A DNA stretch of 64,000 nt from the NCBI GenBank assembly GCA_944384405.1, contig CALWTH010000015.1:90-64089 (forward strand), read 5' to 3'. Source of the DNA: an uncultured Clostridia bacterium (lineage in GTDB: Bacteria; Bacillota; Clostridia; Christensenellales; UBA1242). The position numbers and the translations under genes are program-made. Below the pieces are notes generated by a model. It saw nothing but the letters and a program-made list of their open reading frames with translations. It was not told where the DNA came from and made no database searches. Position 1 is the stretch's first letter. Each line of letters opens with the position of its first letter. Shown here one piece after another: positions 1,331 through 38,388 of the stretch.

Positions 1331-3415
1331 TTAATAAGTTTTAGAATTATCAAGTTTATTTTCGCGTTCAAAATCGCAAGTCGCCGTTATTTCTCGTTTT
1401 GTTCTGTCTGCTTTTTTGATAACTATTGGAATATTATCTGTTATTTTAAGTTTTGTTCCATCGTATCTTACAAGCTCTTGCTTTTTAACATCACATTTAT
1501 ATCCCATTCTATTAAATTCATGCATTGGTATATTGAACATAATCAAGTCGCATTTAACAACAACTTTTGTTGGTTCTATATCAAATATTTTTGCTTCAAA
1601 CTTTTCTCCTATGTGATTTTCAGCCCAAATAGCATTCATTAGGTTGTTGCTTTCGATTTCAGCATCTTTTGCATCAAGTTCTTTTTTGCTTAGGTGAAGT
1701 CCCATAACTTCAAGTTGTTCAATTGAAGGTATATAATTTTTATTGGTTAAATAACTGTAAAGTATTCTGTGTGCGACAAGGTCAGGATATCTTCTGATTG
1801 GTGAAGTGAATTGAATATAGTCTTTGCTTGCAAGTCCAAAATGTCCGACCATTTCTGGTGAATAAAACGCCTTTTGTAAACTTTTTAATAATTTGTATGT
1901 TACATATTCTTCATAATTTTTGTTTTTTATTACATCAATTAAATGATGATAACTATTTACATCTTTTGTAACAAGAGGCAAGTCAAATTGCTTTAATACT
2001 TGATTTAGTTCGTCAATTTGAAAATCGTTTGGGGCATAGTGAACTCTTCGTAAAGTTAGTAAATCATTATTTTTGAAATAATCGCCAATTGCTTCATTCA
2101 TTGCGAGCATAAACGCTTCGATTATTTTTGTTGAAATAAGAGAAGAATGATTTTCAATATTTTCAACATTTGTCTTTGTTTCATCTAAATCATAGTCAGG
2201 TTCTTGTGTGTTGACCATTATTGCTCCACGTTTGTTTCGTTCCATAGTCAACAGGTCAGCAAGTTCAAACATTAAGTTAATTTCTTTATTGATGTCAGCA
2301 AATTTATTATGCATATCATTTTGCTTTAAATATATTTGATCAACAACATTATAACTTAATTTGTGTTTGCTATTTATCACTGCTGGCTTAATCGAATATC
2401 TAAGTCTGTTACCATTATTATCAAAATCAATTGCAACAGTAATGGCGAGCCTATCAACTTTTTCATTCAAAGAGCAAATACCATTTGAAAGTTTTTCTGG
2501 GAGCATAGGATAAACTCCATCTCCAAGATAGCAACTTGTTCCACGTTTGTATGCCTCTTTGTCAAGCTCGCTTCCAATTTTGACATAGTGTCCCACATCT
2601 GCGATTGCTCCAACAAGGCGATAGCCATTGTCTGTTTTTTCAACATAAACAGCATCGTCCATATCTTTGCAAGTTATTGGATCAATTGTTACGATATTTA
2701 GTTTTCTTAAGTCGACTCTGCCAACAATATCATTTTCCTCAACATTTTCAGGTATTTGTTCAAGTTCTTTTTCAATTTTGCTGTTAAAATGTTTTTTAAA
2801 GCCATGTTTTTCTGCAATTACAACATTTTCAACAATAGGATCATCTGCGTTTCCATAAACTTTAACAATAGACGCAAGGGGTATTTGACCTTTTCTTTCT
2901 TGTTCAATTTTAACGCTTACTTTTTTGCCAACTAGATTTGTTGTTGCCTCATCATTTGGAAGTAAAAATTTGTTGTTGTCATCATCAATAAGAACAATTG
3001 CATTTGATTTAAGTTTGACAACTCTACCAAATATGACTTCGTCTTGCTTTTGTAAAATTTTATTAACAATAGCAATTCTGTTTGAACCATCGTTGACTAT
3101 ATATGCACTTACTTCGTCTCCATCTTGTGCTCCATTAACATTGGAAATTTTAATAAACTCTTGTGGGTTGGAAATTTCTATATAAAATTTATTTTTGTTG
3201 CCATGTATTTTTCCTGCAACCGGCTGTAAAGCGCATATGTATTTTTTGTTTTTCAGTTTTATGATTTTTTCTTGATAAAGTTTTGATAAACAAAGTGATA
3301 GCATTTTGTCACTTATTTTAATTTCTTTTGTTATTCTGTTAAAAGCAGTATTATAATTTTTGCCAAAAAGATTATTCACAACGAGTTGTTCGAATACTTT
3401 ATTTTTTAATTCCAT
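1331..3415 (-). CDS. rnr: ribonuclease R (RNB-family 3'-5' exoribonuclease)
   Basis: 694 aa with RNB signature HFGLASKDYIQFTSPIRRYPDLVAHR. AGGAAGG RBS before the ATG at 3415. Confidence 0.9.
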   Translation of the reverse strand: MELKNKVFEQLVVNNLFGKNYNTAFNRITKEIKISDKMLSLCLSKLYQEKIIKLKNKKYICALQPVAGKIHGNKNKFYIEISNPQEFIKISNVNGAQDGDEVSAYIVNDGSNRIAIVNKILQKQDEVIFGRVVKLKSNAIVLIDDDNNKFLLPNDEATTNLVGKKVSVKIEQERKGQIPLASIVKVYGNADDPIVENVVIAEKHGFKKHFNSKIEKELEQIPENVEENDIVGRVDLRKLNIVTIDPITCKDMDDAVYVEKTDNGYRLVGAIADVGHYVKIGSELDKEAYKRGTSCYLGDGVYPMLPEKLSNGICSLNEKVDRLAITVAIDFDNNGNRLRYSIKPAVINSKHKLSYNVVDQIYLKQNDMHNKFADINKEINLMFELADLLTMERNKRGAIMVNTQEPDYDLDETKTNVENIENHSSLISTKIIEAFMLAMNEAIGDYFKNNDLLTLRRVHYAPNDFQIDELNQVLKQFDLPLVTKDVNSYHHLIDVIKNKNYEEYVTYKLLKSLQKAFYSPEMVGHFGLASKDYIQFTSPIRRYPDLVAHRILYSYLTNKNYIPSIEQLEVMGLHLSKKELDAKDAEIESNNLMNAIWAENHIGEKFEAKIFDIEPTKVVVKCDLIMFNIPMHEFNRMGYKCDVKKQELVRYDGTKLKITDNIPIVIKKADRTKREITATCDFERENKLDNSKTY

Positions 3416-3473
3416 GGCAACCTTCCTTACCTAAGAATATCATATTATGAGCATATTTGCAAGTGTCGATTTG

Positions 3474-4031
3474 TTAATCTCTTTTTTCAAGCATACTAAA
3501 ATTCTCATGACTTAAATATGCAATAAAACGTTGTTGTGTGTTGTCAATGTTGCCTTTGTAAAAAAATTTCGCTTTTTGTTTGCCTTTGTTTTCTTCCAGA
3601 TTTTCAAATGTTATGTCATAGAAATTATATCCCAAGATATTCAAAAAAGGATTTATATAGAAAAGATCATTTTTTACATAAACAATACCAATTAAAATTA
3701 TAACGAGCACAAAAACAACAAACATACTTACTTTTTCAAGTTCAAAACTTAAAGCAAAAAGAACAAACAATGAAAAATAGCCTAGAAAGTATTTTTCAGT
3801 GATATTTGTTGCGTTTACTATTTTTATTAAAGATTTTGGTGTGCTTTCATGTTTTATTGACATTTTTGCCCCGTATACTCCAAGAATTATTAAAAATGAA
3901 AACGATATTATTGTAAATGTATTTAAAAAATTGAATGTAAGGTTGAAAAAAATAATGTCAATTAAAATTTTGATAATGACGAGTACATAAAGTGGCACAA
4001 ACGCACTAAGATATAATAATATTTTTTTCAT
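3474..4031 (-). CDS. small multi-pass membrane protein, unknown function
   Basis: 185 aa with four to five hydrophobic helices. No recognisable motif and a weak RBS. Confidence 0.4.
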   Translation of the reverse strand: MKKILLYLSAFVPLYVLVIIKILIDIIFFNLTFNFLNTFTIISFSFLIILGVYGAKMSIKHESTPKSLIKIVNATNITEKYFLGYFSLFVLFALSFELEKVSMFVVFVLVIILIGIVYVKNDLFYINPFLNILGYNFYDITFENLEENKGKQKAKFFYKGNIDNTQQRFIAYLSHENFSMLEKRD

Positions 4032-15581: not shown

Positions 15582-15591
15582 AAGAAATAAA

Positions 15592-15626
15592 AAATCTAAA
15601 ACGTTATATGTTTTAGATTTTTTTTA
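15592..15626 (+). terminator. rho-independent terminator after trpS
   Basis: AAATCTAAAAC / GTTTTAGATTT stem followed by a T-run. Confidence 0.7.
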
Positions 15627-15705
15627 CATTTACAAAATATTTGTAGATGTGAAATTTAAGTTGAATTAGGTATATTTTAACACATAAGATGATTTTATGT
15701 TTTTA

Positions 15706-15772
15706 TGTTATAATTTATAATATGAAATATCATTATTTGAAAATTCCTATTATTAAATGAATATTCCTATTA
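15706..15772 (+). promoter_or_regulatory. putative promoter/operator region of the XRE gene
   Basis: Extended -10 TGTTATAAT (15706..15714). Direct repeats ATTCCTATTA at 15743..15752 and 15763..15772, 20 bp apart. Confidence 0.25.
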
Positions 15773-15846
15773 AAAATATGTTTTCTTTTTACTACTAATC
15801 TATATAATTTATAGTGTTTAATCAAATTTTAAAAGGAGAACAATTT

Positions 15847-16935
15847 ATGTTTAAGTTTAACAAAGTTAGGCAAAAAATTGGTAAAAATCTATGTAATTTA
15901 AGAAAGTCAAAGGGGCAAAGGCAAGGAGATTTTGCAGTTATGTTAAATAGAGTCTTAAAAGACAAATATTTAATAGATTATAATTATGACTGCAAAACTA
16001 TCAGCAATTGGGAACAGGGCAAGTCGATGCCAAAACTTGATGTGCTTATTGCAATTTGTAAGGAGTATAACTTAAGTTTGGATGAGTTGCTAAAAGACAA
16101 AATTGATGATGTTGTATCACATTCCAGTTTCTCAGCATCTGATGAAGAAATTCTAAATAATTTTTTAGATAATAAATATGTTTGTGTAAAGTCAAACAAT
16201 AATTTCGTCAGCAGTTTCAACCCAGAAATGTATAAATATGGACAACTGTCATATTTGGCAGACAACATTGTAGAATATAGAAGTTCATTAAGTAAAAATT
16301 TTAGTTTTACAAACGCAACAAAAGAAGTTCAAATTGTTGTTGGGATATTGGATGTAAACGAGGGAAAAAGAGAATTGCATTATTTGGGCAATGGAGAAAA
16401 TGACATTGTGAGTGTAGAAAATATTCCGAGTAATTATTCCATTTTTGAAATTGAAAACAATTATATAATTAATTCAATACTTTATTCACAAATAAAAAAT
16501 GAAAATATGGATAAAGTTATTAAATTGGGGAATGGCAAAACTTACATTTTAAGTGGAAACGATATAAGTTTTGACTATGATGTACAACAATTCAAATTCA
16601 AAAAAGAAGAAATACCAGAAGACTTAGAATTTTATGGATTGACAAAAGATGATGATTGGACAAACTATGCCATATTAAAAGGACATTACATATTAGATGA
16701 TGTTAATTTGTTTGATTTTGTTAGTTCTGGAATTTGTTATCACGAAAAGTCAAAAGTTTTTGAAGTTGTTTTAACTGGAAAAATAAAGGTTACCGATGCT
16801 CAACTTGTAAAGATATTATCAGATGATTATAAACATAGATTAATTCAATGTTTATCTATAATATCAGATGATTCAATTTGCGGACAATTAAAAAATGAAA
16901 TAATAAATTATGAAATAAAGAAGAGAAATGATTAG
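15847..16935 (+). CDS. XRE-family HTH protein with a ~290-aa uncharacterised C-terminal domain
   Basis: HTH segment LRKSKGQRQGDFAVML...TISNWEQGKSMPKLDVLIAICKEYNLSLDELL. Start at MFKFNK after AAAGGAG. No recognisable motif in the C-terminal domain. Confidence 0.65.
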   Translation: MFKFNKVRQKIGKNLCNLRKSKGQRQGDFAVMLNRVLKDKYLIDYNYDCKTISNWEQGKSMPKLDVLIAICKEYNLSLDELLKDKIDDVVSHSSFSASDEEILNNFLDNKYVCVKSNNNFVSSFNPEMYKYGQLSYLADNIVEYRSSLSKNFSFTNATKEVQIVVGILDVNEGKRELHYLGNGENDIVSVENIPSNYSIFEIENNYIINSILYSQIKNENMDKVIKLGNGKTYILSGNDISFDYDVQQFKFKKEEIPEDLEFYGLTKDDDWTNYAILKGHYILDDVNLFDFVSSGICYHEKSKVFEVVLTGKIKVTDAQLVKILSDDYKHRLIQCLSIISDDSICGQLKNEIINYEIKKRND

Positions 16936-17018
16936 TATTTTTTGATTTATTATTAAAAATATAAAAAAATAAGAACGAAAAAATTTTAAAAAATAATAAA
17001 CAAATTTAGGAGATAAAT

Positions 17019-18329
17019 ATGAAAAAATACATAATTGAAACATTATTAAAATTAAATCAAAATGATAAAAATCAAATTTTAAAAATAAATAGTGAGAATC
17101 TATATAAAAATGGTGGAATGCTTGAAAATGAAGGTATATTACCATATGATTATATTGTAGTTGCAAGATTAAACGAAGATATAATTGCTTATTGTTATTT
17201 GAGAAAAAACTTTGATAAAGAAAAGGATATGTATGTGCCACAAATCGCCATAGGTAAAGATTATCAAGGCTATGGAATTGGTAAAAAAATATATGAATAT
17301 GTTTTTAAACATTTAAAAGGTTTTGATTCAATAAGTTGTCATATAAGAATTTATAATCCAGAGTCAAAATCTTTTCACGAAAGTTGTGGTTTTTCTGTTA
17401 AACTTGATATGCGATTTATAAATAATTATATTGCAACAAAAAAAGTTACTGAAAATGATTTGCTTAGTTTTGACGAGGCGCAACCAGAAGAACAATTCAT
17501 TGACGATAGTAGTTTAAAACTTATGGGTGCCATAATCGGAGATATAGTGGGCTCACCATATGAATTTATGAGTTTGAAATTAAAAAATTTTCCATTATTC
17601 AATAACTATTGCCGCTTTACTGATGATACCATTATGACCTGTGCAATTGCTCAAAGTTTAATTGACTGCAATGGAAATTATAGCAATCTTGGTAAAATAA
17701 CAATAGTCAATATGCATGAAATAGGTAAACATTATTACAAAACAGCGGGATATGGTGGAATGTTCTATGAGTGGCTTATTTCAGGTAGTGTAAAGCCTTA
17801 TAATTCTTTTGGTAATGGAAGTGCAATGCGCATAAGTGCTATTCCTTATGTTGCAAAAAGTTTGGAAGAAGTAAAAGAATTGTCAAGAAAAGTAACCGAG
17901 ATAACACATAATCACCCAGAAGGAATAAAAGGAGCAGAAGCAACAGCCGTCGCTGAATGGATGGCCTTAAATGGAAGTAGCAAAGAAGAAATTAGAAAGT
18001 ATATTGATGAAAATTATTATCCAATGAATTATGACGAAAATGATTTGTTAGAGAATTATAAATTTGAAGGTTCATGTCAGGAAAGTGTTCCACAAAGTAT
18101 TTTTGCCTTTTTGATTTCAACATCATACGAGGACGCCATAAGAAAAGTTATTTCATGGGGTGGGGACACCGATACCATGGGTGCAATAACCGGTGGGATT
18201 GCAGGAGCATATTATGGCATTCCAAAAGACATTGAAAGAAAAGGACTGGAATATTTAGATGAAAGAATGCTAAAAATCGTTAAAGATTTCAATAAGATGA
18301 TAAATAAAAAGTACAATGAAAAAACATGA
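17019..18329 (+). CDS. GNAT acetyltransferase fused to an ADP-ribosylglycohydrolase (ARH/DraG-family) domain
   Basis: N-terminal GNAT motif A (QIAIGKDYQGYGIGKKIYEYV). C-terminal ARH motifs GAIIGDIVGSPYEF, FTDDTIMT, GNGSAMRI and GGDTDTMGAITGGIAGAYYG. AGGAG RBS. Confidence 0.75.
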   Translation: MKKYIIETLLKLNQNDKNQILKINSENLYKNGGMLENEGILPYDYIVVARLNEDIIAYCYLRKNFDKEKDMYVPQIAIGKDYQGYGIGKKIYEYVFKHLKGFDSISCHIRIYNPESKSFHESCGFSVKLDMRFINNYIATKKVTENDLLSFDEAQPEEQFIDDSSLKLMGAIIGDIVGSPYEFMSLKLKNFPLFNNYCRFTDDTIMTCAIAQSLIDCNGNYSNLGKITIVNMHEIGKHYYKTAGYGGMFYEWLISGSVKPYNSFGNGSAMRISAIPYVAKSLEEVKELSRKVTEITHNHPEGIKGAEATAVAEWMALNGSSKEEIRKYIDENYYPMNYDENDLLENYKFEGSCQESVPQSIFAFLISTSYEDAIRKVISWGGDTDTMGAITGGIAGAYYGIPKDIERKGLEYLDERMLKIVKDFNKMINKKYNEKT

Positions 18330-18395
18330 AGCAAAGTGAATTATTGAAAATTTGATGTGATACCAAAAATTTAGATTTAATGTGGTGAGGTTAAT

Positions 18396-19526
18396 ATGTT
18401 TTTTGCTTGGAAATTATTCGATGAAGAAATAGATAAATTATTAGAAAGAAAGTCAAAGTATAGTGGTGATGACTTTTATAATAAATATTTTCTTAATGAT
18501 TTGCAAAAAAAGATTGAAAAACACTTTTTTTTAGAACAACGAGTAAATGAGGTGTTTAATTTATTACAAAGTCAATTCAAACTTAGTGAAGAAACATTAA
18601 AAAGTATTTTTCTTCCAAATTCAAGTTTGTTTAAATTGTCAAACAAAGAAATAATGTTAAGATTTAGATATTACATTGATTTTTTTGGAAACATAGACCT
18701 TTTATGTAAAGTTATAAAAAATTCAAGCGTGATATATCGTAAAAATATATTATTTAGTTGGAAGGATATGCATCAAGCCCAAAAACAATTTGATTGGTTA
18801 AAAGATTTTTTTAATTTAAACGAAAATGAAACAAGGCTTTTTATAATTTATAATACATATTTTTTTGTAACAGAACCTAAAAAACTAGAAGAAAAAGTAA
18901 ATGATTATGCAAGAGTTCTTGGAGTAGGTATTGATGTTATAAAACATATTTGTTTATTTTCTCCAATAAGATTTTATAGCATAGTCGAGAGCTTAGAAGA
19001 AAATATAAATGGTTTTTCAAAAATTTTTGATATAGATATAAGTAAAACAAAAGAAATATTTGTAAAATATCCATTTATAATAGATAGGCAAATTACAACA
19101 TTTAGGTATTGTTTTAACATATTAAAAAAATATTCAAAAAATATTTCTTTATTGATGACAGAAAATCCCTTTATTATCAATTTACTTGATTATGAAGGGA
19201 AAAAATACAATGGCGATTTTGACACTTTTGAAGAATTTATTGAGAGTATTGAGTTTATAGAACAAAATATTGGGACAATTATTAGGACATATACTTATGT
19301 ATGCTATAGCAAATTGTATTCATTTTGTATTGTGAAAAAAAATAACGATGTTATAGAATGTATAATTTTTGGGCTGAAGAGTGATAAATTTAACACTAAA
19401 GTTTCAAATTCGTATGCTTATAGAAAATGGATTTTTCCATACTATACTCTTAAAAGTTGCCGAGAAATCTATGTTGAAGAGAGAATTAAAGAAATATTAT
19501 TAGATATTTCTGCGCAAGTAGAATAA
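18396..19526 (+). CDS. hypothetical protein with mTERF-like ~32-aa helical repeats
   Basis: Repeating pattern such as LGVGIDVIKHICLFSPIRFYSIVESLEENINGF / FDIDISKTKEIFVKYPFIIDRQITTFRYCFNIL / SKNISLLMTENPFIINLL. The assignment is by eye only. Confidence 0.35.
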   Translation: MFFAWKLFDEEIDKLLERKSKYSGDDFYNKYFLNDLQKKIEKHFFLEQRVNEVFNLLQSQFKLSEETLKSIFLPNSSLFKLSNKEIMLRFRYYIDFFGNIDLLCKVIKNSSVIYRKNILFSWKDMHQAQKQFDWLKDFFNLNENETRLFIIYNTYFFVTEPKKLEEKVNDYARVLGVGIDVIKHICLFSPIRFYSIVESLEENINGFSKIFDIDISKTKEIFVKYPFIIDRQITTFRYCFNILKKYSKNISLLMTENPFIINLLDYEGKKYNGDFDTFEEFIESIEFIEQNIGTIIRTYTYVCYSKLYSFCIVKKNNDVIECIIFGLKSDKFNTKVSNSYAYRKWIFPYYTLKSCREIYVEERIKEILLDISAQVE

Positions 19527-19544
19527 AAATTTTTATAAAAAGTT

Positions 19545-19587
19545 GCTTGTGGTGGGATTTGAACCCACATGAAGTTGCCCTCGCGGG
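19545..19587 (-). pseudogene. orphan 3' half of a tRNA-Leu gene (variable arm, T-arm, acceptor 3' strand)
   Basis: 19561..19587 is identical over 27 nt to 19751..19777 of the intact tRNA-Leu. The T-loop (TTCAAAT) and acceptor strand (CACAAGC) differ, there is no CCA, and no 5' half is present. Confidence 0.7.
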
Positions 19588-19601
19588 GGCGACGCGTAAA
19601 G

Positions 19602-19626
19602 AAAACAACCCTGTGAGGTTGTTTTT
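19602..19626. terminator. bidirectional terminator hairpin
   Basis: AAAACAACC / GGTTGTTTT 9-bp stem with loop CTGTGA. T-runs follow on both strands. Confidence 0.5.
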
Positions 19627-19730
19627 AGCCAAAGCCGGAAGCTATTGCGAAGGCAATAGCGGTCTGGCTCCGACAGGAGTTGATGTCCCGTAGGGACTCA
19701 AAATCCCGCAAAAATATCTAAATAAAAAAA

Positions 19731-19816
19731 TGGTGCTGGTGGTGGGAGTCGAACCCACATGAAGTTGCCCTCGCGGGATTTTGAGTCCCGTGCGTCTGCC
19801 ATTTCGCCACACCAGC
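19731..19816 (-). tRNA. tRNA-Leu (anticodon CAA), class II with long variable arm, CCA encoded
   Basis: Folded by hand: acceptor GCTGGTG/CACCAGC, anticodon stem CGGGA/TCCCG with loop CTCAAAA, 15-nt variable arm, T-arm GTGGG-TTCGACT-CCCAC, discriminator A, CCA. Confidence 0.9.
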
Positions 19817-24030: not shown

Positions 24031-27000
24031 ATGAAAAATTCCTTAAAATTAATTATCACGATTGCTATGTGTTGCATCTCAACTGCTTTGCTCGTCTTTG
24101 GTGTGTATAGTGCAAATCAAATTGATTATTCACTAACGGGCAATATTTTTTATGAGGTCAACTCTCTTTACACAGATGTGTCAACATCACTTTATGCGTT
24201 GACACAAACACAAGAACAAAGTGAGATTGATTCATATTTAAAAATGGTGGAACTGAAAGATAGTTTGGACAATAATCAATCCCTTCCTGATGATATTGTC
24301 AAATTGGACTATTCTAGTTTTTATTCAACAATGAACAATAACATAAGTGAAGAGGATACTCTGCTAGCTAGCGAAACATTTGGGGTCAGTTATGATGACT
24401 ATGATCCAGTTTTGGTGACGCCAACGGCATACACTTTTTATTTGGTGTTTGAAGTAAAAAACTATTCAAGCGAAACAATAAGTGCACTACTCGATTTTTC
24501 AAATATAACCAATAATACGACCAACACCACAGTAAATTCATTATTCACTAAGGCAAACATATACGGCAAAACAGGGGAAGAGGAATATGGAACATTTTAT
24601 TTTGTGTCGTCACTATCTTTTGATAAGCACTCTATATTAAAATCGTATAATTTTGATAACATAACATTTACAGTAAATACTGGGGAATTGGTGTCAACAC
24701 CATTGTCACAATTTACCTTCACCACAAGCAATGGTCAAGCAACATTGACGTCATATGTAGGCGATAGTACCGATGTGGTTATCCCATCTCACCTTGATGA
24801 CGGAACACCCGTCACAGAATTAGGTGGAAATGCGTTTAGAAACAAAACTATCCAAAATGTTTACATACCAGATACTATTAGTGTAATCAATGATGCTGCT
24901 TTTAGTGGTTGCACAAATTTATCTAATGTTGACATTCAAAGTAATTGTTTGACAAGCATAGGGTATTCAGTTTTTTCTGGTTGCAGTAGTTTACAAAGTA
25001 TAACAATACCAAACTCAGTGATAAGTATAGGAAGATATGCATTTAATAATTGCAGTAGTTTGCAAGGAGTGACATTGCCAAATAACGATAATTTTACAAC
25101 GATAGAAGGTGATATGTTTTATAATTGCAAGAATTTACAAAGTATCACAGTGCCAGGCTCGGTAACAAGTATAGGCAGTTATGCGTTTCGTGGTTGCAGT
25201 AGTCTGCAAGAGGTGACATTGCCAAATAACGATAACTTCACAACGATAGAAAGAGATACATTTAATGGTTGCAGTAGTTTACAAACCATCACAATACCAA
25301 AATCGGTAACAAGTATAGGATATTCTGCGTTTTCTGAATGTAGCAGCATAAAAAGAGTGCACTATTTGGGAACGGTCAACGATTGGCTTAATATAAGTTT
25401 TCATGATGGGACTTCAAACCCCATATGGTATGGTGCAAATTTGTATATAAATGGTACCTTATTTGAAGAGATCAAGGCAGAGGATTTCACTGATGGCAAA
25501 GAGGTCACAAAGATAAATGATTATGCATTTTCTGGTTGTGTCAGTTTAAAAAGTGTCACAATACCAAGTGGTGTGACAAGTATAGGAAGTTCTGCATTTT
25601 ATAGATGTAGTAGCATAAAAGATGTGTACTATTTGGGAACAGTCAATGACTGGCTTAACATAAGTTTTGGTGCTTCATCTTCAAATCCATTGAATAATGG
25701 AGCAAATTTGTATATAAATGGCACCTTATTACTTGAAGAAATAAAGGCAGAGGACTTTACTATTGGCAAAGAGGTAACAGCAATAAGCGATTATGCTTTT
25801 TATAATTGCAAAACTTTAAAAAGTGTCACAATACCAAGTGGTGTAACAAGTATAGGCAGTTATGCGTTTCGTGGTTGCAGAAGTTTACAAAGTATCACAG
25901 TGCCAGGCTCAGTAACAAGTATAGGAAGTTATGCGTTTTATGGTTGCAGTAGTTTACAAGAAGTGACGCTGCCAGATAACAATAACTTATCAACTATAGA
26001 AAATTATACATTTTATGGTTGTAATGGTTTAACAAGTATAACAATACCAGACTCAGTAACAAGTATAGGAAGTTATGCATTTGATGCTTGCAGTAATATA
26101 AAAGAAGTGTACTATTTGGGAACAGTCAATGACTGGTTTAACATAAGTTTTAGTGGTTCATCTTCAAATCCATTGAATAATGGAGCAAATTTGTATATAA
26201 ATGACACCTTACTTGAAGAGATTAGGGCAGAGGATTTTACTATTGGCAAAGAGGTAACAGCAATAAGCGAATATGCTTTTTATAATTGCAAAACTTTAAA
26301 AAGTGTTACAATACCAAGTGGTGTAACAAGTATAGGAAGTTATGCATTTAATGATTGCAGTAGTTTGCAAAGTATTATAGTGCCCGATACGGTAACAAGC
26401 ATAAGATATCAAGCGTTTACGGGTTGCAGTAATATAAAAGAAGTGTACTATTTGGGAACAGTCAATGACTGGCTTAACATAAGTTTTGGTGATTTATATT
26501 CAAATCCATTGAATAATGGAGCAAATTTGCATATAAATGATACCTTACTTGAAGAAATAAAGGCAGAGGACTTTACTGATGGTAATGAGGTCACAAAGAT
26601 AGGTTATGCATTTTATGGTTGTAATAGTTTAAAAACCATTACAATACCAGAAACGGTAACAAGTATAGGAAGTTCTGCATTTTATGGTTGCAGTAATTTA
26701 CAAGAAGTGACACTGCCAGATAACGATAAATTTACAACGATAGAAAGAAATACATTTGATGGTTGCAGTAGTTTACAAACCATCACAATCCCAGCAAATG
26801 TAACAAGTATAGGAAGTCAAGCATTTTATAATTGCAGTAGTTTACAAGAAGTGACACTGCCAGATAACGATAAATTTACAACGATAGAAAGTAATACATT
26901 TTATAATTGCTGTAGTTTATCTAGCATCACAATCCCAGCAAATGTAACAACTATAGGAAGTCAAGCATTTTGGGGTTGCAGTAATTTGTTTCTTGTTATT

Positions 27001-29007
27001 AATTTATCTACTAGTATAACAATTAGTTTGAAAAGCAGTTCAAACGGATATGTTGGATATTATGCCAAGAAAATAACAAATACTTTAAGTCAGGATAATT
27101 TTTATACTCAAGATGGAATACATTATTATGAAGATAATGAAATAAAGATTATATTAGGAATTGACATTGAGGGCTACACAATGACAATACCAGAGGGAAC
27201 AGTTGCAATAACTTCGGGACTTGTCCTTGGTTTACTTCCTGAGAGTGCTGGGAAAAACGTGATAGCAAAAGTTGTTATACCAAGTTCAGTAACAAGCATA
27301 GGGAGTTCGGCATTCAGTGGTTTTGGAAATTTAAAAGAAGTTTATTATTTGGGAACAGTCAACGACTGGCTCAATATAAGGTTTTCTAATGATACTTCGA
27401 ACCCAATGAGTTATGGTGCAAATTTGTATATAAATGATACCTTACTTGAAGAAATAAAGGCGAATGACTTTACTGATGGCAAAAATATAACTAGAATAAG
27501 CGACTATGCTTTTTATAATTGTAAAAGTTTACAAAGTATCACAATAGCGGATACTGTTGAGACCATAGGAAGTCGAGCATTTTCTGGTTGCAGTAGTTTA
27601 CAAAGTATCACAGTGCCGGGCTCGGTAACAAGTATAGGAAGTCTAGTGTTTTATGGTTGCAGTAGTATAACAGAAGTGCACTATCTTGGAACAGTCAACG
27701 ACTGGCTCAATATAAGTTTTTTTGATTCCTATGCAAATCCATTATATTTTGGTAATGCTATTTGGTATATGAACGATACATTACTTGAAGAAATAACTGT
27801 AGAGGATTTTACTAATGGTAAAGAGATAAATACGATAAGCGAATATGCATTTTATGGATGTGCCAGTTTAAAAAGCATCACAATCCCAGCAAATGTAACA
27901 AGTATAGGCAGTTCTGCGTTTGATGGTTGCAGTAATTTACAAGAAGTGACATTGCCAAATAACACTGATTTTACAACGATAGGAAGTAATACATTTTCTA
28001 ATTGCAGTAGTTTACAAACCATTACAATACCAGAAACGGTAACAAGTATAGGACGTTCTGCATTTTATAATTGCAGTAGTTTACAAAGTATTATAGTGCC
28101 AAAATCGGTAACAAGTATAGGACGTTCTGCATTTTATAATTGCAGTAGTTTACAAAGTATTATAGTGCCAAAATCGGTAACAAGTATAGGCAGTTCTGCG
28201 TTTAATGGTTGCAGTAGTTTACAAGAAGTGACATTGCCAGATAACGATAAATTTACAACTATAGAAAATCATACATTTTCTGAGTGCAGTGATTTGCAAA
28301 TCATAACAATACCAGGCTCGGTAACAAGTATAGGAGATTCAGCATTTTATAGTTGCTATGATTTGCAAACCATAACAATACCAGGCTCGGTAACAAGTAT
28401 AGGAAGTTATGCATTTTATAGTTGCAGTAGTATAAAAGAAGTGCGTTATTTGGGAACAGTCAACGACTGGCTCAATATAAGTTTTTCTATGAAAGAGTCA
28501 AATCCGATGCGCTTTACTGATAATGTGTACATAAATGATAGCCTGCTTGAAGAGATAACGGCAGAGGATTTTACGGATGGAACAAATAAAATAACAAAAA
28601 TAAACAATTATGCTTTTTATGGCTATTATAGTTTAAAAAAGGTCACAATACCGGACTTTGTGGAAAGTATCGGAAATCAAGCATTTTATAATTGCTATAA
28701 TTTACAAACCATCACAATACCAAACACTGTTGAAAACATAGGAAATTATGCATTTGATACTGATTATAGAGCTTCTTCAATTTACAGAATAATTGTTGAA
28801 AGCGAAACAGTTTTAAAAGGTTTGACGGGAACTGGAACAAGCACAATGGGTGCTTTACTTTCAACAGTGGAAGATAACTTGGATAGAATATACATTCCAG
28901 AATCTATTGAGGATTCTGTGCCTGATTATATTAAAAACAACTGGACAAAGTTTGACAAAACTGAAACAGTTAATGGAACGATATATGTTATTTATGGAAA
29001 AATATAG
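24031..29007 (+). CDS. giant BspA-type leucine-rich-repeat surface protein (1658 aa)
   Basis: N-terminal signal-anchor, then dozens of ~23-aa units of the form ITIPxSVTSIGxxAFxxCSSLQ (BspA/LRR_5 type), plus seven 58-aa YLGTVNDWLNISF modules. No LPXTG or other C-terminal anchor seen. AAGGAG RBS. Confidence 0.85.
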   Translation: MKNSLKLIITIAMCCISTALLVFGVYSANQIDYSLTGNIFYEVNSLYTDVSTSLYALTQTQEQSEIDSYLKMVELKDSLDNNQSLPDDIVKLDYSSFYSTMNNNISEEDTLLASETFGVSYDDYDPVLVTPTAYTFYLVFEVKNYSSETISALLDFSNITNNTTNTTVNSLFTKANIYGKTGEEEYGTFYFVSSLSFDKHSILKSYNFDNITFTVNTGELVSTPLSQFTFTTSNGQATLTSYVGDSTDVVIPSHLDDGTPVTELGGNAFRNKTIQNVYIPDTISVINDAAFSGCTNLSNVDIQSNCLTSIGYSVFSGCSSLQSITIPNSVISIGRYAFNNCSSLQGVTLPNNDNFTTIEGDMFYNCKNLQSITVPGSVTSIGSYAFRGCSSLQEVTLPNNDNFTTIERDTFNGCSSLQTITIPKSVTSIGYSAFSECSSIKRVHYLGTVNDWLNISFHDGTSNPIWYGANLYINGTLFEEIKAEDFTDGKEVTKINDYAFSGCVSLKSVTIPSGVTSIGSSAFYRCSSIKDVYYLGTVNDWLNISFGASSSNPLNNGANLYINGTLLLEEIKAEDFTIGKEVTAISDYAFYNCKTLKSVTIPSGVTSIGSYAFRGCRSLQSITVPGSVTSIGSYAFYGCSSLQEVTLPDNNNLSTIENYTFYGCNGLTSITIPDSVTSIGSYAFDACSNIKEVYYLGTVNDWFNISFSGSSSNPLNNGANLYINDTLLEEIRAEDFTIGKEVTAISEYAFYNCKTLKSVTIPSGVTSIGSYAFNDCSSLQSIIVPDTVTSIRYQAFTGCSNIKEVYYLGTVNDWLNISFGDLYSNPLNNGANLHINDTLLEEIKAEDFTDGNEVTKIGYAFYGCNSLKTITIPETVTSIGSSAFYGCSNLQEVTLPDNDKFTTIERNTFDGCSSLQTITIPANVTSIGSQAFYNCSSLQEVTLPDNDKFTTIESNTFYNCCSLSSITIPANVTTIGSQAFWGCSNLFLVINLSTSITISLKSSSNGYVGYYAKKITNTLSQDNFYTQDGIHYYEDNEIKIILGIDIEGYTMTIPEGTVAITSGLVLGLLPESAGKNVIAKVVIPSSVTSIGSSAFSGFGNLKEVYYLGTVNDWLNIRFSNDTSNPMSYGANLYINDTLLEEIKANDFTDGKNITRISDYAFYNCKSLQSITIADTVETIGSRAFSGCSSLQSITVPGSVTSIGSLVFYGCSSITEVHYLGTVNDWLNISFFDSYANPLYFGNAIWYMNDTLLEEITVEDFTNGKEINTISEYAFYGCASLKSITIPANVTSIGSSAFDGCSNLQEVTLPNNTDFTTIGSNTFSNCSSLQTITIPETVTSIGRSAFYNCSSLQSIIVPKSVTSIGRSAFYNCSSLQSIIVPKSVTSIGSSAFNGCSSLQEVTLPDNDKFTTIENHTFSECSDLQIITIPGSVTSIGDSAFYSCYDLQTITIPGSVTSIGSYAFYSCSSIKEVRYLGTVNDWLNISFSMKESNPMRFTDNVYINDSLLEEITAEDFTDGTNKITKINNYAFYGYYSLKKVTIPDFVESIGNQAFYNCYNLQTITIPNTVENIGNYAFDTDYRASSIYRIIVESETVLKGLTGTGTSTMGALLSTVEDNLDRIYIPESIEDSVPDYIKNNWTKFDKTETVNGTIYVIYGKI
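28037..28174 (+). repeat. perfect 69-bp tandem duplication inside the LRR gene
   Basis: 28037..28105 is identical to 28106..28174 (encoding SVTSIGRSAFYNCSSLQSIIVPK twice). The next 16 nt repeat again before diverging. Confidence 0.9.
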
Positions 29008-35061: not shown

Positions 35062-37290
35062 ATGATAGTTGAAAATGGAATATTGCTTAAAGTTGATGAA
35101 AAGGATATTGAACTCCTAAACAAAAATCCCAAAAAATTTTGGGAAGGTATATATCACATTGGTGACGGAGCTTTTCAAGATTGTACAAGTTTAAAAAACA
35201 TAGAGATACCAAATAGTGTAACAAGTATAGGTAAAGAAGCTTTTCAAGATTGTTCAAATTTAGAGAATATAGTTATACCAAACAGTGTAACAGCTATTGG
35301 AGATTTTGCGTTTTCTTATTGTACAAATTTAAAAAAAATAGAGATACCAAATAGTGTAAAAAGTATTGGAAATTCTGCTTTTGCGAGTTGTACAAGTTTA
35401 AATGATATAGAGATACCCAATAGTGTAACAGCTATTGGAGATTCTGCGTTTTTTAATTGTACAAGTTTAAAAGAAATAGATATACCAAATAGTGTGACAG
35501 CTATTGGAAATTCTGCGTTTGTTAATTGTACAAGTTTAAAAGAAATAAATATACCAAATAGTGTGACAGCTATTGGAGATTCTGTGTTTGAAAATTGTAG
35601 CAATTTAAAAGAAATAGATATACCAAATAGTGTGACGGCTATTGGAAATTCTGCGTTTGTTAATTGTACAAGTTTAAAAGAAATAAATATACCAAATAGT
35701 GTGACAGCTATTGGGGATTCTGCGTTTGAAAATTGTATAAACACAAGAAATATAGAGATACCAAATAGTGTAACAAGTATTGGTGACAGAGCTTTTCAAT
35801 ATTGTACAAGTTTAGGAAATATAGAGATACCAAATAGTGTAACAAGTATTGGAAAATCTGCCTTTTATGGAGTAAGGAATGTACAAATTCAAGATAAACA
35901 TATAATAGGAGATATATTAAGCACCGGAATATTTGAACTTATTAAAAATAATCCAAACATTAATTTAAAACAACTAACAAAAATATATTCAATCGCCAAA
36001 AATAAGGGCATCAATGTTGATAATACAAATGACTTTTTAGCATTATGCTATAATATTGGCATGCTTGAAAATAGGTCTTCAACGCTTACTATCAATAAAA
36101 ATGGCAAGACAAACAATGTCCCTATATGTGATTTGGCATATACTTTTATTCAAGGTTTAATTAATCATAATGAATTGGCTCTTAATGACTTGCATATGAA
36201 TTTGCAAGATTTAAAATTCAATAAATTTAATATAAATTTTGCAAGGTTTGTTGTGAACAAAAATAATTGGTCAGATATAAAAGAAAATTTACATTTATTA
36301 TCACGTATTTATGCATGGTTTGATTCAAGGGCAAATTTGGATTTAGAAAATAATGAATATTCGCTTTTGCCAACAACTGAAGAAAATAGATATAAAATTT
36401 TGGTATACGAAACTGCAGAAAATGGGATAGATAGAATGCATTGGAGAAATCCCACTGTTGAGCTTTTATTAAAAGAATTTGCCAATAATAAATTTGTTGG
36501 AATAAATACCCCAAGAGAAAAAGAAATAGCAGAGTATTTAACACAGTATAACATTTACACGCAGAAACATTTTGAAAAAGCAAAAGAAATCGATGAAGAA
36601 AGAAGGAATAGTGGAGTTCAAGATATTTTACGTAAACCTATTTCACAAGATAGAATTTCAAGTCTAGACGAATATAGAGAAAAAACTAAACAAATGAGAG
36701 AAAAAATTTTAAGTGATGCTTCGGAAGTTCTTTCAAAACAAATTGAAGATACATCTTCAATTTTCACTTATGAAGTTTTGTCTAAAGATTCTGTTGAAAA
36801 CTTTGCTATGGGATGTATGACGAGTTGTTGTGCAACATTATATGGTGCAGGAGCGGGAGCAATGAGAGCAATGATAAATCACCCTGATATTCAACCATTT
36901 GTCATAAGAGATTTTGATAACAAGATAATATCTTTTGGTATCATATATGTAAATAGGGAACAGGGATATGCAGTTGTGAATGATTTTGAAGTAAATAAAA
37001 AGTATATGGATAGAGATGAACAGAGAAAGGCAATTTATGATAAAGCAATGGAAGGTATACGCGCTTTTGTAAAAGAGTATAATTTAGAAAATCCGGAAAA
37101 GCCCATAAGAAAAGTGACAAGTGGCATCTCTCCAAACTGGACTGCAATTAATGATTATATACGTCAAAATCCAAAAAGTGAAATCTTAAAAGCACCAAAT
37201 TTTAATGATTTTAAATATGCAGGTAGTGGGTTATGGCCAGGAGATTGGCATAGAGAACAATACAAGATATTTGACATGGGGGGAAAATGA
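35062..37290 (+). CDS. signal-less BspA-type LRR protein with a ~470-aa uncharacterised C-terminal domain
   Basis: About 11 units of IEIPNSVTAIGxSAFxNCTSLKEI follow an N-terminus with no hydrophobic leader. The C-terminal domain contains GCMTSCCATLYGAGAGAMRAM; no family recognised. Confidence 0.7.
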   Translation: MIVENGILLKVDEKDIELLNKNPKKFWEGIYHIGDGAFQDCTSLKNIEIPNSVTSIGKEAFQDCSNLENIVIPNSVTAIGDFAFSYCTNLKKIEIPNSVKSIGNSAFASCTSLNDIEIPNSVTAIGDSAFFNCTSLKEIDIPNSVTAIGNSAFVNCTSLKEINIPNSVTAIGDSVFENCSNLKEIDIPNSVTAIGNSAFVNCTSLKEINIPNSVTAIGDSAFENCINTRNIEIPNSVTSIGDRAFQYCTSLGNIEIPNSVTSIGKSAFYGVRNVQIQDKHIIGDILSTGIFELIKNNPNINLKQLTKIYSIAKNKGINVDNTNDFLALCYNIGMLENRSSTLTINKNGKTNNVPICDLAYTFIQGLINHNELALNDLHMNLQDLKFNKFNINFARFVVNKNNWSDIKENLHLLSRIYAWFDSRANLDLENNEYSLLPTTEENRYKILVYETAENGIDRMHWRNPTVELLLKEFANNKFVGINTPREKEIAEYLTQYNIYTQKHFEKAKEIDEERRNSGVQDILRKPISQDRISSLDEYREKTKQMREKILSDASEVLSKQIEDTSSIFTYEVLSKDSVENFAMGCMTSCCATLYGAGAGAMRAMINHPDIQPFVIRDFDNKIISFGIIYVNREQGYAVVNDFEVNKKYMDRDEQRKAIYDKAMEGIRAFVKEYNLENPEKPIRKVTSGISPNWTAINDYIRQNPKSEILKAPNFNDFKYAGSGLWPGDWHREQYKIFDMGGK
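35466..35741 (+). repeat. near-perfect 138-bp tandem duplication (two LRR units each)
   Basis: 35466..35603 versus 35604..35741; I counted about 3 mismatches. Confidence 0.85.
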
Positions 37291-37532
37291 GTATGAAAAA
37301 TAAAATTGATATTTGGATAAAAGTAGATGCGTTGTTACAAAAGCGATTAAAGGAACTTGAAGCATTGGATTCTCAAAGGGAAGAGATAATACAAAAAGCA
37401 GAAAAAATGGGTACTCTTACTGAAGAGCTAAAGCAAGAAATGGAAGAGAATTTAGCAAAGTATAATAATTTGGCAAAAAATGTAGAAGACTTGAAAAATA
37501 GAGTACAAAAGATGAAGAACAATAAAGGTTAA
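37287..37532 (+). CDS. small coiled-coil protein, translationally coupled to the LRR gene
   Basis: 81 aa, Glu/Lys/Leu-rich heptad-like sequence. ATGA overlap with the upstream stop; GGGGGGA RBS. Confidence 0.45.
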   Translation: MSMKNKIDIWIKVDALLQKRLKELEALDSQREEIIQKAEKMGTLTEELKQEMEENLAKYNNLAKNVEDLKNRVQKMKNNKG

Positions 37533-37536
37533 TAAG

Positions 37537-37669
37537 TTTGTCTTTGCATTGGCCTTTTTGATGATGCCACTACTTTACAACCACCATTCATCGGTCAGAA
37601 AGCACATCGCTTATGGTTTTTATGTTTGCAATAGGGGTTTCATTAATGTTCTCAGAAAAAGTAAAATAG
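37537..37669 (+). pseudogene. degenerate duplicate of the ftsW 3' end
   Basis: 37610..37640 matches 34860..34890 at 29 of 31 nt. It translates (with a frameshift) to LQPPFIG...STSLMVFMFAIGVSLMFSEKVK, compared with the FtsW C-terminus LPLPFISAGSTSLMVFMSAIGVCLNVARQSKKQ. Confidence 0.7.
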
Positions 37670-37707
37670 TTTACATACAATGAAGTAAATTTAAGGGATA
37701 GTTTGAT

Positions 37708-38388
37708 ATGATAAAAGAAAGCAAATATGCAATTTTTGAATATGAAGAACAAGATGAAAATATTATAAATGATTTAATAGATTGGTTAGATAAGAATGCT
37801 ATTATGATTTTTAATTTTTTTGATATAACATTAAACAATAATAAAGTAAAAATTCAAATCTTAAAAAACAAACATGAATTTGACAAGGATTATATAATAA
37901 GTAATAAATTACAAAAAGATTATACTGTTCCTGATTGGTGTATTGGATTTTCAAACAATAATCAAATAAAAATTGTCTCTTTTAATGACTATGTCAATAT
38001 TCCAAGCCATAAAAATGATACTTTTGAGTTATACAAAAAAACAATCTTACATGAGTATGTGCACTATGTAAATTTCTTATTTAATCAATCAAAAAATTGT
38101 GATGACACAGAAAAATATTTAGTCGAGGGTATCGCTTGCTTTTTAAGTAAACAATACGATGGACAAAAGTTAGAATTAAATAGTTCTATAGAAAATATAT
38201 TGAATGAAAATTTCGCATCTTATAGTAGTTATTACCTTCTTACGAAATATTTAGTTGAAAATTATGACAAAAATTTCGTTTTGAAACTTTTTAAAAATAA
38301 AAAACAAGCAAGAGAATTTTTAGTAACTGAATTATACAACAAGGTTAAAGAACAATATGCAATTAATCAGTTTTATAAAATTATATAA
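37708..38388 (+). CDS. putative gluzincin metallopeptidase (peptidase-MA-like)
   Basis: HEYVH (HExxH), followed 24 residues after its second His by EGIACF (the EGxAxY-type third ligand). No signal peptide. Confidence 0.4.
   Translation: MIKESKYAIFEYEEQDENIINDLIDWLDKNAIMIFNFFDITLNNNKVKIQILKNKHEFDKDYIISNKLQKDYTVPDWCIGFSNNNQIKIVSFNDYVNIPSHKNDTFELYKKTILHEYVHYVNFLFNQSKNCDDTEKYLVEGIACFLSKQYDGQKLELNSSIENILNENFASYSSYYLLTKYLVENYDKNFVLKLFKNKKQAREFLVTELYNKVKEQYAINQFYKII

Follow-up and report, generated by a model that had tools for sequence, protein, structure and literature searches.

Introduction

Phages and competing bacteria commonly ADP-ribosylate the proteins and nucleic acids of their hosts. To our knowledge, no host system dedicated to undoing this modification has been demonstrated, and the only proposal of one is a prediction made in 2022 for other phyla. 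In that work (Iyer, Burroughs, Anantharaman and Aravind 2022, Viruses 14:1977, PMC9503650, section 3.8), systems centred on ADP-ribosylglycohydrolases (ARG), which lack an ADP-ribosyltransferase (ART), are regulated by a transcription factor and have variable effectors, were predicted to act against ADP-ribosylation by viruses. The ARG-centric systems were described in Actinobacteria, Planctomycetes and Proteobacteria and have regulators with Nudix or WYL sensors; a coupled phosphatase is present in about 55% of them, and rhodanese or other phosphatases as well as TY/vWA chaperones are common (PMC9503650). Here, a locus of three genes in a 64,000-nt stretch of contig CALWTH010000015.1 from an uncultured Clostridia bacterium (Bacillota), a stretch referred to at its full length as the window or WIN, was analysed and compared with these and other described systems.

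The three genes are located on the forward strand between the terminator of trpS and a tRNA-Leu gene, an arrangement that had been noted in a first-pass annotation of the window and was confirmed by the open reading frames (ORFs), the terminator hairpin and ARAGORN. The first gene, g1 (15847..16935), begins with an ATG behind an AAGGAGA ribosome-binding site and encodes an XRE-family helix-turn-helix (HTH) protein of 362 aa. The second, g2 (17019..18329), encodes a fusion of a GNAT acetyltransferase and an ADP-ribosylhydrolase (ARH) of 436 aa, and the third, g3 (18396..19526), a protein of 376 aa with an mTERF fold. No ortholog of any of the three genes has been characterised, and a check against PADLOC gave no system match, in agreement with the annotation, which had known of no described system of such composition. 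Tentatively, and with somewhat less than an even chance of being right, we propose that the locus represents an inducible conflict module which removes ADP-ribose attached by an outside enzyme and which is found in a few uncultured gut Clostridia. For the comparison, loci around relatives of each gene were fetched (42 loci, approximately 370 kb in total, numbered L001 and upwards) and their ORFs were clustered. The sequence of the window itself was found to be present in chicken-gut metagenomes.

A conserved pair of genes with variable cargo

In all loci with a g1 relative and enough flanking sequence, g1 and a gene with an ARH domain were found adjacent on one strand at a distance within approximately 2.2 kb. 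These loci represent 8 distinct contexts (WIN/L016, L009, L001/L023/L028, L024, L020, L018, L021 and L026), and the pair was present in each of them. Further clusters of g1 and of ARH have longest contigs that agree in length. The conserved unit is the pair of g1 and the ARH gene, while the N-terminal domain of the hydrolase and the accessory genes are swappable. In the window and L016 the gene order is g1, GNAT::ARH and g3; in L009 it is Mrr_cat, g1, a gene for 225 aa and GNAT::ARH; in L001, L023 and L028 it is g1, 97 aa, GNAT::ARH, 151 aa, 100 aa and a second HTH protein, followed by Fic, Abi_2 and HsdM in L001 and L002, where the contig extends further. In L024, g1 is followed by genes for 350 aa and 178 aa and by GNAT::ARH. 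L020 contains g1, an ARH gene with a different N-terminal domain (Ndom::ARH) and a 97-aa gene, and L018 contains g1, genes for 111 aa and 158 aa and an ARH gene without an N-terminal extension. In L021 the order is 97 aa (unrelated to the 97-aa family of L001 and L020), g1, ARH and 350 aa, and in L026 it is ARH, g1, 106 aa and 173 aa. Altogether, six accessory sets were distinguished. The accessories that are swapped comprise the 97-aa, the 350-aa and the 173-225-aa families, the pair of 111 aa and 158 aa, the 178-aa protein and g3. The first three of these recur; the 350-aa family is HSDR_N_2/PD-(D/E)XK-like, its members in L021 and L024 reaching 26 bits with HSDR_N_2 against a cut-off of 25.

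The first-pass annotation had regarded the three genes as one system and had named co-occurrence in other genomes as the check. The complete trio was found only in L016 and L017, which belong to the same species as the window (90% DNA identity, 97-100% protein identity), and this part of the annotation was given up: g3 is an exchangeable cargo gene of the g1-ARH core.

The interval between trpS and tRNA-Leu, which the annotation had also suggested comparing among relatives, proved to be accessory and variable in L009 and not fixed core. L009 shares the frame of trpS, tRNA-Leu and mcsA with the window and has different cargo: an additional block with Mrr_cat, a 225-aa gene and no g3. Between trpS and g1 it contains DUF4279, HTH_26, two small ORFs and Mrr_cat. 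DNA homology between the window and L009 extends through trpS to 15582, resumes at 15720 with the promoter of g1 and g1 itself, skips the 225-aa gene of L009, covers g2, skips g3 and resumes at 19544. Three positions of the locus have seen gain or loss of cargo. The DNA identity of g1 (76%) and g2 (82%) between the two loci is as low or as high as that of the flanking core genes (75% and 83%), and g1 and g2 are therefore old residents at this locus and not a recent insertion. At the protein level, g1 (72% identity) and the GNAT domain (78%) evolve faster than the ARH domain (87%).

Several of the loci have a defence context, since Mrr_cat adjoins g1 in L009 and Fic, Abi_2 and HsdM are located downstream in L001; a MazF toxin gene or Fic/Abi genes are neighbours of the module in some loci. 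As a further observation on the surroundings, the module is repeatedly a neighbour of aminoacyl-tRNA synthetase genes: in the more distant relatives L018/L019 and L026, a gene for a class II aminoacyl-tRNA synthetase immediately precedes g1-ARH, and in L018 the module is also less than 2 kb from trpS.

A conserved, predicted operator-promoter element upstream of g1

The 20-bp-spaced direct repeat ATTCCTATTA that had been noted in the leader of g1 is real and conserved. Two copies with a period of 20 bp are present on the forward strand at 15743-15752 and 15763-15772; the pattern was matched once in the window and in 0 of 100 shuffled sequences. The strict motif ATTC[CG]TAT-N12-A[AT]TC[CG]TAT occurs once in each of 9 loci (5 of them distinct), always just upstream of the g1 homolog, and no further occurrence was found elsewhere in the 42 loci (approximately 370 kb). 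Degenerate copies are located at the same place in L018, L020, L021 and L026. In 8 loci, the proteins of which share a mere 50-72% identity, the repeats are part of a 42-nt element upstream of g1 with the consensus AAATTC[CG]TATTAyTrAAsGA.TAwTC[CG]TATyrAAAA..GGTT. This element is followed by a spacer of 17 nt and a -10 box, which is TATAAT in 7 of the 8 loci and TATTGT in L026; both this box and the distance between it and the repeats are aligned in all 8 loci. The promoter core of the window (15780..15808) accordingly consists of the -35-like GTTTTC at 15780, a 17-nt spacer and TATAAT at 15803-15808, and that of L001 of TTGTCA-N17-TATAAT.

The extended -10 box TGTTATAAT of the annotation is indeed present at 15709..15717 of the forward strand, as read from the sequence. 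It is, however, confined to the species of the window and located upstream of the conserved promoter, the homology to L009 starting only at 15720, i.e. past this box. Taken together, the position and the conservation of the repeats suggest that they are the operator of g1, and we infer that g1 binds them and controls its own operon. The spacers between g1 and g2 (83 bp) and between g2 and g3 (66 bp) were searched for terminator-like hairpins; because none was detected in either spacer, co-transcription of g1, g2 and g3 is likely.

The predicted regulator g1

For g1, both the XRE-type HTH and the C-terminal domain of no family were borne out. Pfam recognised HTH_3 (E 6.6e-07), and the rest of the protein was without a family: the C-terminal domain of approximately 260 residues had no match in Pfam at E<=10 and no detectable relative, and a profile search of it against PDB sequences gave nothing credible. 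A whole-chain Foldseek search against PDB and BFVD returned relatives for the HTH alone, which dominates such searches. The PHROGs matches were repressor families; among NCBIfam models, the HipB/Y4mF antitoxin HTH and the RstR repressor were matched weakly, and PADLOC gave weak HTH-level matches only (E 1.8e-4 to 2e-3). In the AlphaFold model (pLDDT 84), a disordered linker connects the HTH (residues 1-82) to a beta-rich domain (approximately 113-313), which is followed by a C-terminal helix of 45 residues (317-361). On these grounds g1 is predicted to be a one-component regulator with a sensor, and the beta-rich putative sensor domain, which has no detectable relative, appears to be novel.

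In a collection of 5.8 billion proteins, the g1 family is represented by 41 clusters (90% identity). Its members are nearly all approximately 360 aa long and conserved end to end, with the motifs YGQLSYLADNL, GKRELHYLGNGENDIV, KLGNGK and DAQLVKVLxDDYKHRL. Among 185,579 GTDB species representatives, relatives were found in two, both of them metagenome-assembled genomes (an uncultured Clostridium and an uncultured Clostridia bacterium), and IMG/VR contained none. The C-terminal domain was also considered as a hidden ADP-ribosyltransferase and this was rejected: it has no invariant glutamate, its conserved residues being C113, H178, D186, D259 and others, which is weak negative evidence. In L028 (6001-6233, on a 137-kb contig) decay has left only a C-terminal remnant of g1, with an intact 97-aa gene and GNAT::ARH downstream of it; loss of the regulator is thus compatible with persistence of the hydrolase.

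The ADP-ribosylhydrolase of g2 and its family

That g2 is a fusion of an acetyltransferase and an ADP-ribosyl hydrolase was upheld, both Pfam domains being above threshold: Acetyltransf_1 (PF00583) at residues 43-125 (E 2.5e-11, 44.3 bits against a cut-off of 20.7) and ADP_ribosyl_GH (PF03747) at residues 168-401 (E 4.7e-41, 141.8 bits against a cut-off of 26.2). The GNAT domain extends over residues 1 to approximately 150 and the ARH domain from approximately 166 to 434. The acetyl-CoA motif QGYGIGKK is present in the translation, and the best model matches of the GNAT domain are RimI-like. The ARH motifs GD..GS..E, TDD, GNG.AMR, THNH and GGD.DT are invariant in 10 relatives and align to those of ARH3 and Lmo0067, with all metal-binding and catalytic motifs kept; the domain is thus predicted to be an active, metal-dependent hydrolase with a complete active site. 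PADLOC-DB 2.0 had no match for g2 or g3, the NCBIfam toxin models had none for the GNAT domain of g2, and the PHROGs matches of g2 were generic ARH and acetyltransferase families only.

The full-length GNAT::ARH fusion forms just 8 clusters (80-100% identity). Taken by itself, the ARH domain falls into a very large subfamily in Bacillota, whose proteins are approximately 265 aa long (54-77% identity). Its N-terminus is swapped, being GNAT, an unknown 166-aa domain (Ndom) or nothing; Ndom is common to L020 and L012 (42% identity), and GNAT is missing in L018, L020, L021 and L026, i.e. in half of the g1-ARH contexts. The GNAT protein of L034 was considered as an ortholog of the g2 GNAT domain and rejected, only the generic motif being in common. 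Eight GenBank phage records carry an ARH of 40-49% identity. The stand-alone ARH P0114 (265 aa, 56% identical to the ARH domain of g2), identical sequences of which are found in 350 blocks of the collection, has a changing set of defence genes as neighbours in L029-L036, namely PvuRts1I/SRA, GmrSD, AbiEi/AbiEii, RE_MjaI with a methylase, AIPR, Fic and an AAA and radical-SAM pair, and it looks like the constant element that anchors a defence hotspot. In 4 of the 8 loci, the gene after P0114 is that of a leucyl aminopeptidase.

Among the solved structures, the closest relative of g2 is Lmo0067 (8za7, E 4.6e-18), and the NCBIfam model of Tri1 is matched at E 4.4e-10. These matches would suit an orphan immunity protein against ADP-ribosylating toxins from other bacteria, delivered by type VI or type VII secretion systems (T6SS, T7SS) or contact-dependent inhibition (CDI), in the manner of Tri1 or Lmo0067, and the missing linked transferase and the dense gut habitat are consistent with such a role. 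The Tri1 match of 38.8 bits is, however, far under its cut-off of 490 (that of DraG, 62.7 bits, compares with a cut-off of 337), the neighbours of the relatives are restriction, Abi and restriction-modification (R-M) genes and not secretion or toxin loci, and a dedicated sensor-regulator together with nuclease-like accessories is atypical of immunity genes, which makes this explanation an unlikely one.

The mTERF-fold protein g3 and its relatives

The mTERF-like call for g3 was substantiated by its model, by Foldseek and by its relatives. The AlphaFold model (pLDDT 86, pTM 0.77) contains helical repeats (residues 1-263) and an extra small alpha/beta domain at the C-terminus (278-375), and the 15 best Foldseek matches in PDB consist entirely of MTERF1, MTERF3 and MTERF4 and of a mitoribosomal chain that shares their fold (probability 0.99-1.0, TM 0.39-0.50). 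The sequence of g3 itself gave no match in Pfam at E<=1, in NCBIfam or in PADLOC, while 7 of 12 aligned relatives match Pfam mTERF (PF02536) at E<=1, the best of them at 1.2e-11; at a cut-off of 23.1 bits, P0005, which is 49% identical to g3, reaches 30 bits and P0167 reaches 44.6 bits. The predicted model and these matches support an mTERF superhelical repeat fold for g3. The family is rare: a word-indexed search of 5.8 billion proteins gave 5 clusters, and with an exhaustive profile search 65 representatives were obtained at E<=1e-3; no relatives were found in IMG/VR, GenBank phages or JGI metagenomes.

In L011-L015 a g3 relative precedes Ndom::ARH, i.e. the order is reversed in comparison to the window. 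L012 (3717-8484) is a mobile-element segment with HTH, T5orf172, the g3 homolog, a 446-aa Ndom::ARH and KilA-N, and with a rolling-circle Rep nearby; the 446-aa ARH cluster P0086 with 2373 members may be this Ndom::ARH, in which case the element would be abundant in gut metagenomes. Without an ARH gene, g3 relatives are located after GmrSD_N-HNH in L005 and beside two large serine recombinases in L040. In L041 (5001-6137) the gene for a protein of the g3 family (33% identical) is part of a type I R-M operon, with hsdM/hsdS-like genes on one side and hsdR on the other. The anticodon nuclease PrrC has the same position in the prr loci of E. coli. L001 has a gene for 151 aa and L005 one for 152 aa; assignment of these to one family was rejected, the two being unrelated.

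These contexts bear on the possibility that the hydrolase acts on a nucleic acid or a small molecule and not on protein, in cooperation with restriction enzymes and with g3 as nucleic-acid-binding partner. It might remove ADP-ribose or a related glycosyl group from DNA or RNA, or break down a signal derived from ADP-ribose. In the solved structures that match g3 best, the mTERF fold is DNA- or RNA-binding, and the g3 family occurs beside ARH in two gene orders (window and L012) and also in a type I R-M operon. ARH proteins of the same subfamily are fused to HsdM_N/N6_Mtase of type I R-M methyltransferase modules (P0074, P0088, P0101, P0104 and P0107), and others are neighbours of type IV restriction genes, which are directed at modified DNA (PvuRts1I/SRA, GmrSD and Mrr). 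Furthermore, a DarG3 of the ARH type has been reported in connection with DNA ADP-ribosylation (PMC13069673). Literature searches for a link between ARH and HsdM and for mTERF proteins in bacterial defence gave nothing relevant. Nevertheless, most g1-ARH loci lack g3, and the g3 relatives of L005 and L040 are without ARH; a nucleic-acid or small-molecule substrate is likewise unlikely. It is quite improbable, as a more specific form of the same idea, that g3 and ARH work jointly on nucleic acid, where g3 would expose an ADP-ribosylated or glycosylated nucleotide and ARH would cleave the adduct. mTERF1 is a protein that flips bases. Joint action of this kind could serve the repair of host nucleic acid after phage attack or the unmasking of modified phage DNA for restriction.

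Proposed function

According to the conflict module that we tentatively favour, the HTH domain of g1 would bind the two direct repeats abutting its own -35 region and would control the g1-g2(-g3) operon. The novel beta-rich domain would sense a signal, and the C-terminal helix may mediate dimerisation. The ARH domain of g2 would be the constant enzyme that strips ADP-ribose from host macromolecules. No ART, sirtuin or DarT was found with Pfam, PADLOC and NCBIfam among the genes of the window and the scanned accessory genes of the relatives. As no transferase was found beside ARH in any relative, the ADP-ribose to be removed is predicted to be attached by an outside enzyme, which could be a phage transferase of the Alt/Mod type or an injected toxin. 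The GNAT domain and g3 would be exchangeable accessories that modify or target the hydrolase activity: speculatively, g3 might be a nucleic-acid-binding subunit directing the hydrolase to DNA or RNA, and GNAT might acetylate the freed acceptor or ADP-ribose.

This mechanism was adopted from the ARG-centric systems because the locus has an ARH without an ART, a one-component regulator, domains that displace each other, variable accessories with nuclease folds and a patchy distribution. Hallmarks of conflict systems are seen in the swapped N-termini, the swapped accessories, the faster evolution of g1 and GNAT and, again, the patchiness. Repression or induction by g1, the nature of the substrate and the protective role are what we infer from sequence, structure prediction and gene neighbourhood.

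Several points weigh against the proposal. The contexts are mostly from short metagenomic contigs of a narrow clade, and the 8 of them are not fully independent phylogenetically. Within the genus, the inheritance of g1 and g2 at the locus looks vertical, and the module is not obviously mobile. The modules of L018, L020 and L026 are located between housekeeping genes with no recognisable defence gene nearby. A transferase or toxin could be concealed among those accessory proteins whose fold is unknown, and the defence catalogue used, PADLOC-DB 2.0, is a release of 2023. Finally, the region was absent from the public RNA runs that were searched.

Some of these points would also suit the view that there is no system at all, and that a locally regulated housekeeping ARH, which would reverse an endogenous modification in the manner of DraG or clear O-acetyl-ADP-ribose, is accompanied by unrelated genes at a permissive spot. 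The age of g1 and g2, equal to that of the flanking core genes, the position of several loci between aminoacyl-tRNA synthetase or ribosomal-protein genes and the high abundance of stand-alone ARH of the subfamily in Bacillota are in line with it. This is rather unlikely in view of the extremely patchy g1 family (41 clusters, two GTDB species representatives), the swaps of domains and cargo, the one decayed g1 (L028) and the defence-island contexts of stand-alone ARH relatives.

A toxin-antitoxin (TA) or abortive-infection system, in which GNAT or an accessory protein would be the toxin and g1 the antitoxin or ARH the neutraliser, is very unlikely: an autoregulated HTH gene followed by an enzyme gene does resemble the logic of a type II TA operon, as do the weak matches of g1 to the HipB/Y4mF and RstR models and the MazF, Fic and Abi genes near some loci, but GNAT, because it is missing from half of the g1-ARH loci, cannot be an essential toxin, its best matches are RimI-like with no toxin match in PADLOC or NCBIfam, neither DarT nor another ART was found, and g1, with 362 aa and a large conserved C-terminal domain, is unlike small labile antitoxins.

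Borders of the locus, base composition and the tRNA-Leu scar

The stop codon of trpS is located at 15581, and the left border of the island is formed by the intrinsic terminator of trpS (15591..15625, forward strand), an AT-rich hairpin followed by a T run as read from the sequence. The right border is an intact tRNA-Leu(CAA) gene on the reverse strand (19731..19816; ARAGORN, Rfam tRNA 59 bits), which is followed downstream by mcsA, mcsB and clpC.

The description of the island as AT-rich holds for the island as a whole. The GC content of 15582-19526 is 25.9% compared to 32.5% for the whole window (standard deviation 3.3% in 1.1-kb windows), and the 1.1-kb window with the lowest GC content of the entire 64 kb falls in g3. 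The bias is uneven: g3 has 23.3%, the GNAT part of g2 24.1% and g1 27.3%, whereas the ARH part of g2, with 33.6%, is not AT-rich. Three other stretches of the window are below 27% GC in 1.1-kb windows and island-like, at about 3000-3700, 37200-37900 and 46100-46700. Downstream of clpC, an ORF of 1658 aa (24031-29007) clusters with a protein of L011 that has Flg_new and LRR_5 Pfam matches; the ORF probably encodes a large surface protein.

Between g3 and the intact tRNA gene, outside the module, a scar is located on the reverse strand (19537..19730). It comprises a 51-nt, 90% identical copy of the 3' half of tRNA-Leu (19537-19587), which starts with the anticodon stem (3' strand) and runs to the acceptor end, and an insert of 143 nt with an inverted 17-nt copy of the anticodon arm (19693-19709) and a bidirectional terminator hairpin (19602-19626). 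Integrases whose crossover is in the anticodon loop leave partial tRNA copies of this kind. The 143 nt (19588-19730; L009 11418-11555) fold very stably on either strand (dG approximately -52 kcal/mol, z approximately -5.6), and one inner hairpin shows compensatory changes between the window (CTATTGC/GCAATAG) and L009 (GCAC(A)TTCGC/GCGAAGTGC); no Rfam family was matched at E<=1. The insert could be the relic of an att site or a small structured RNA. L009 has the scar as well (90% identity), and it is absent from L016 and from two metagenomic populations (runs X3 and X4): in L016 (10770-10869) and in some chicken-gut populations (X3, X4) a single intact tRNA gene is present and 191 bp (19534-19726) are missing. 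This polymorphism is consistent with recombination between the two repeat copies.

The first-pass annotation had considered the adjacency to the tRNA gene as meaningful, which did not hold. Only one pair of tRNA-derived repeats was found (19537-19587 and 19727-19777), and the 140 bp enclosed by it are located to the right of g3; no repeat copy was found near trpS, and Pfam revealed no recombinase or integrase among the three genes. Since the scar lies to the right of g3, encloses nothing else and is missing from L016, which has the same island, it is unrelated to the three genes. A tRNA-integrated island was thus rejected as an origin of the three genes, there being no bounding repeats and no integrase and the scar being independent.

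Significance of the locus

If the conflict module is real, a de-modification arm would be added to bacterial immunity, together with a new ligand-sensing domain. The locus would provide a compact and testable version from Bacillota, with a predicted operator, a new putative sensor domain and a hydrolase with an intact active site, and the natural domain swaps (GNAT, unknown domain or none) hint at modulators of the hydrolase activity. The contexts of the g3 family place bacterial mTERF-fold proteins in defence and R-M surroundings; joint action of g3 and ARH, if true, would define a new accessory class for R-M and type IV restriction and the first function of bacterial mTERF proteins.

Comparison with known systems

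The likeness to DarTG and to GNAT toxins that the annotation had suggested was not sustained, as no ADP-ribosyltransferase was found among the scanned genes, there is no small antitoxin and the GNAT domain is dispensable in the family. With DarTG, including the ARH-type DarG3 of DarHTG (NAR 2026, gkag308), the module would share ADP-ribosylation chemistry in defence and possibly a reversing partner of the ARH fold, but no DarT (DUF4433) or other transferase was found among the scanned genes, there is no macrodomain or helicase, and PADLOC gave no DarTG match. With the GNAT toxins TacT, AtaT, ItaT and KacT it has in common the GNAT fold, an intact acetyl-CoA motif and a DNA-binding protein beside it. 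Type II systems of this kind consist of a stand-alone toxin of approximately 160-180 aa, which is toxic by acetylating aminoacyl-tRNA, and a small antitoxin, whereas the GNAT of g2 is fused to ARH, dispensable and RimI-type, there is no ribbon-helix-helix (RHH)/DUF1778 antitoxin, and the upstream gene encodes an XRE protein of 362 aa.

DraT-DraG, Tre1-Tri1 and Lmo0067-type proteins, which reverse protein arginine ADP-ribosylation, have the same enzyme fold and metal-binding motifs as the ARH domain of g2; in contrast to them, g2 is only distantly related and has no adjacent cognate transferase. The mTERF proteins (PF02536; human MTERF1, MTERF3 and MTERF4) share the left-handed helical-repeat fold with g3, and 7 of 12 aligned g3 relatives match the Pfam model at E<=1, while g3 is bacterial, carries an extra alpha/beta C-terminal domain, belongs to a family found in defence and mobile-element contexts and is itself below the Pfam threshold.

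The ARG-centric systems are the closest counterpart, and both they and the present module are predictions made from sequence. In both cases an ARG-type hydrolase stands without a linked transferase or sirtuin, as far as the scanned genes are concerned, next to a gene for a predicted one-component HTH regulator; a conserved core is combined with variable accessories, including proteins of the restriction-endonuclease fold (here the 350-aa protein and Mrr_cat), functionally equivalent domains displace each other, and the distribution is patchy. The present module differs in that it occurs in gut Clostridia, that its regulator has an XRE HTH with a C-terminal domain without relatives instead of Nudix or WYL, and that no phosphatase or chaperone was recognised by Pfam in the window or among the module genes of the relatives; a Metallophos gene in L026 is located approximately 3 kb from the module among housekeeping genes. 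In addition, the module contains a GNAT fusion and an mTERF-fold partner. The elements that are new in comparison with the described systems are the predicted sensor domain of g1, the GNAT::ARH fusion and the association of a bacterial mTERF fold with ARH and R-M loci.

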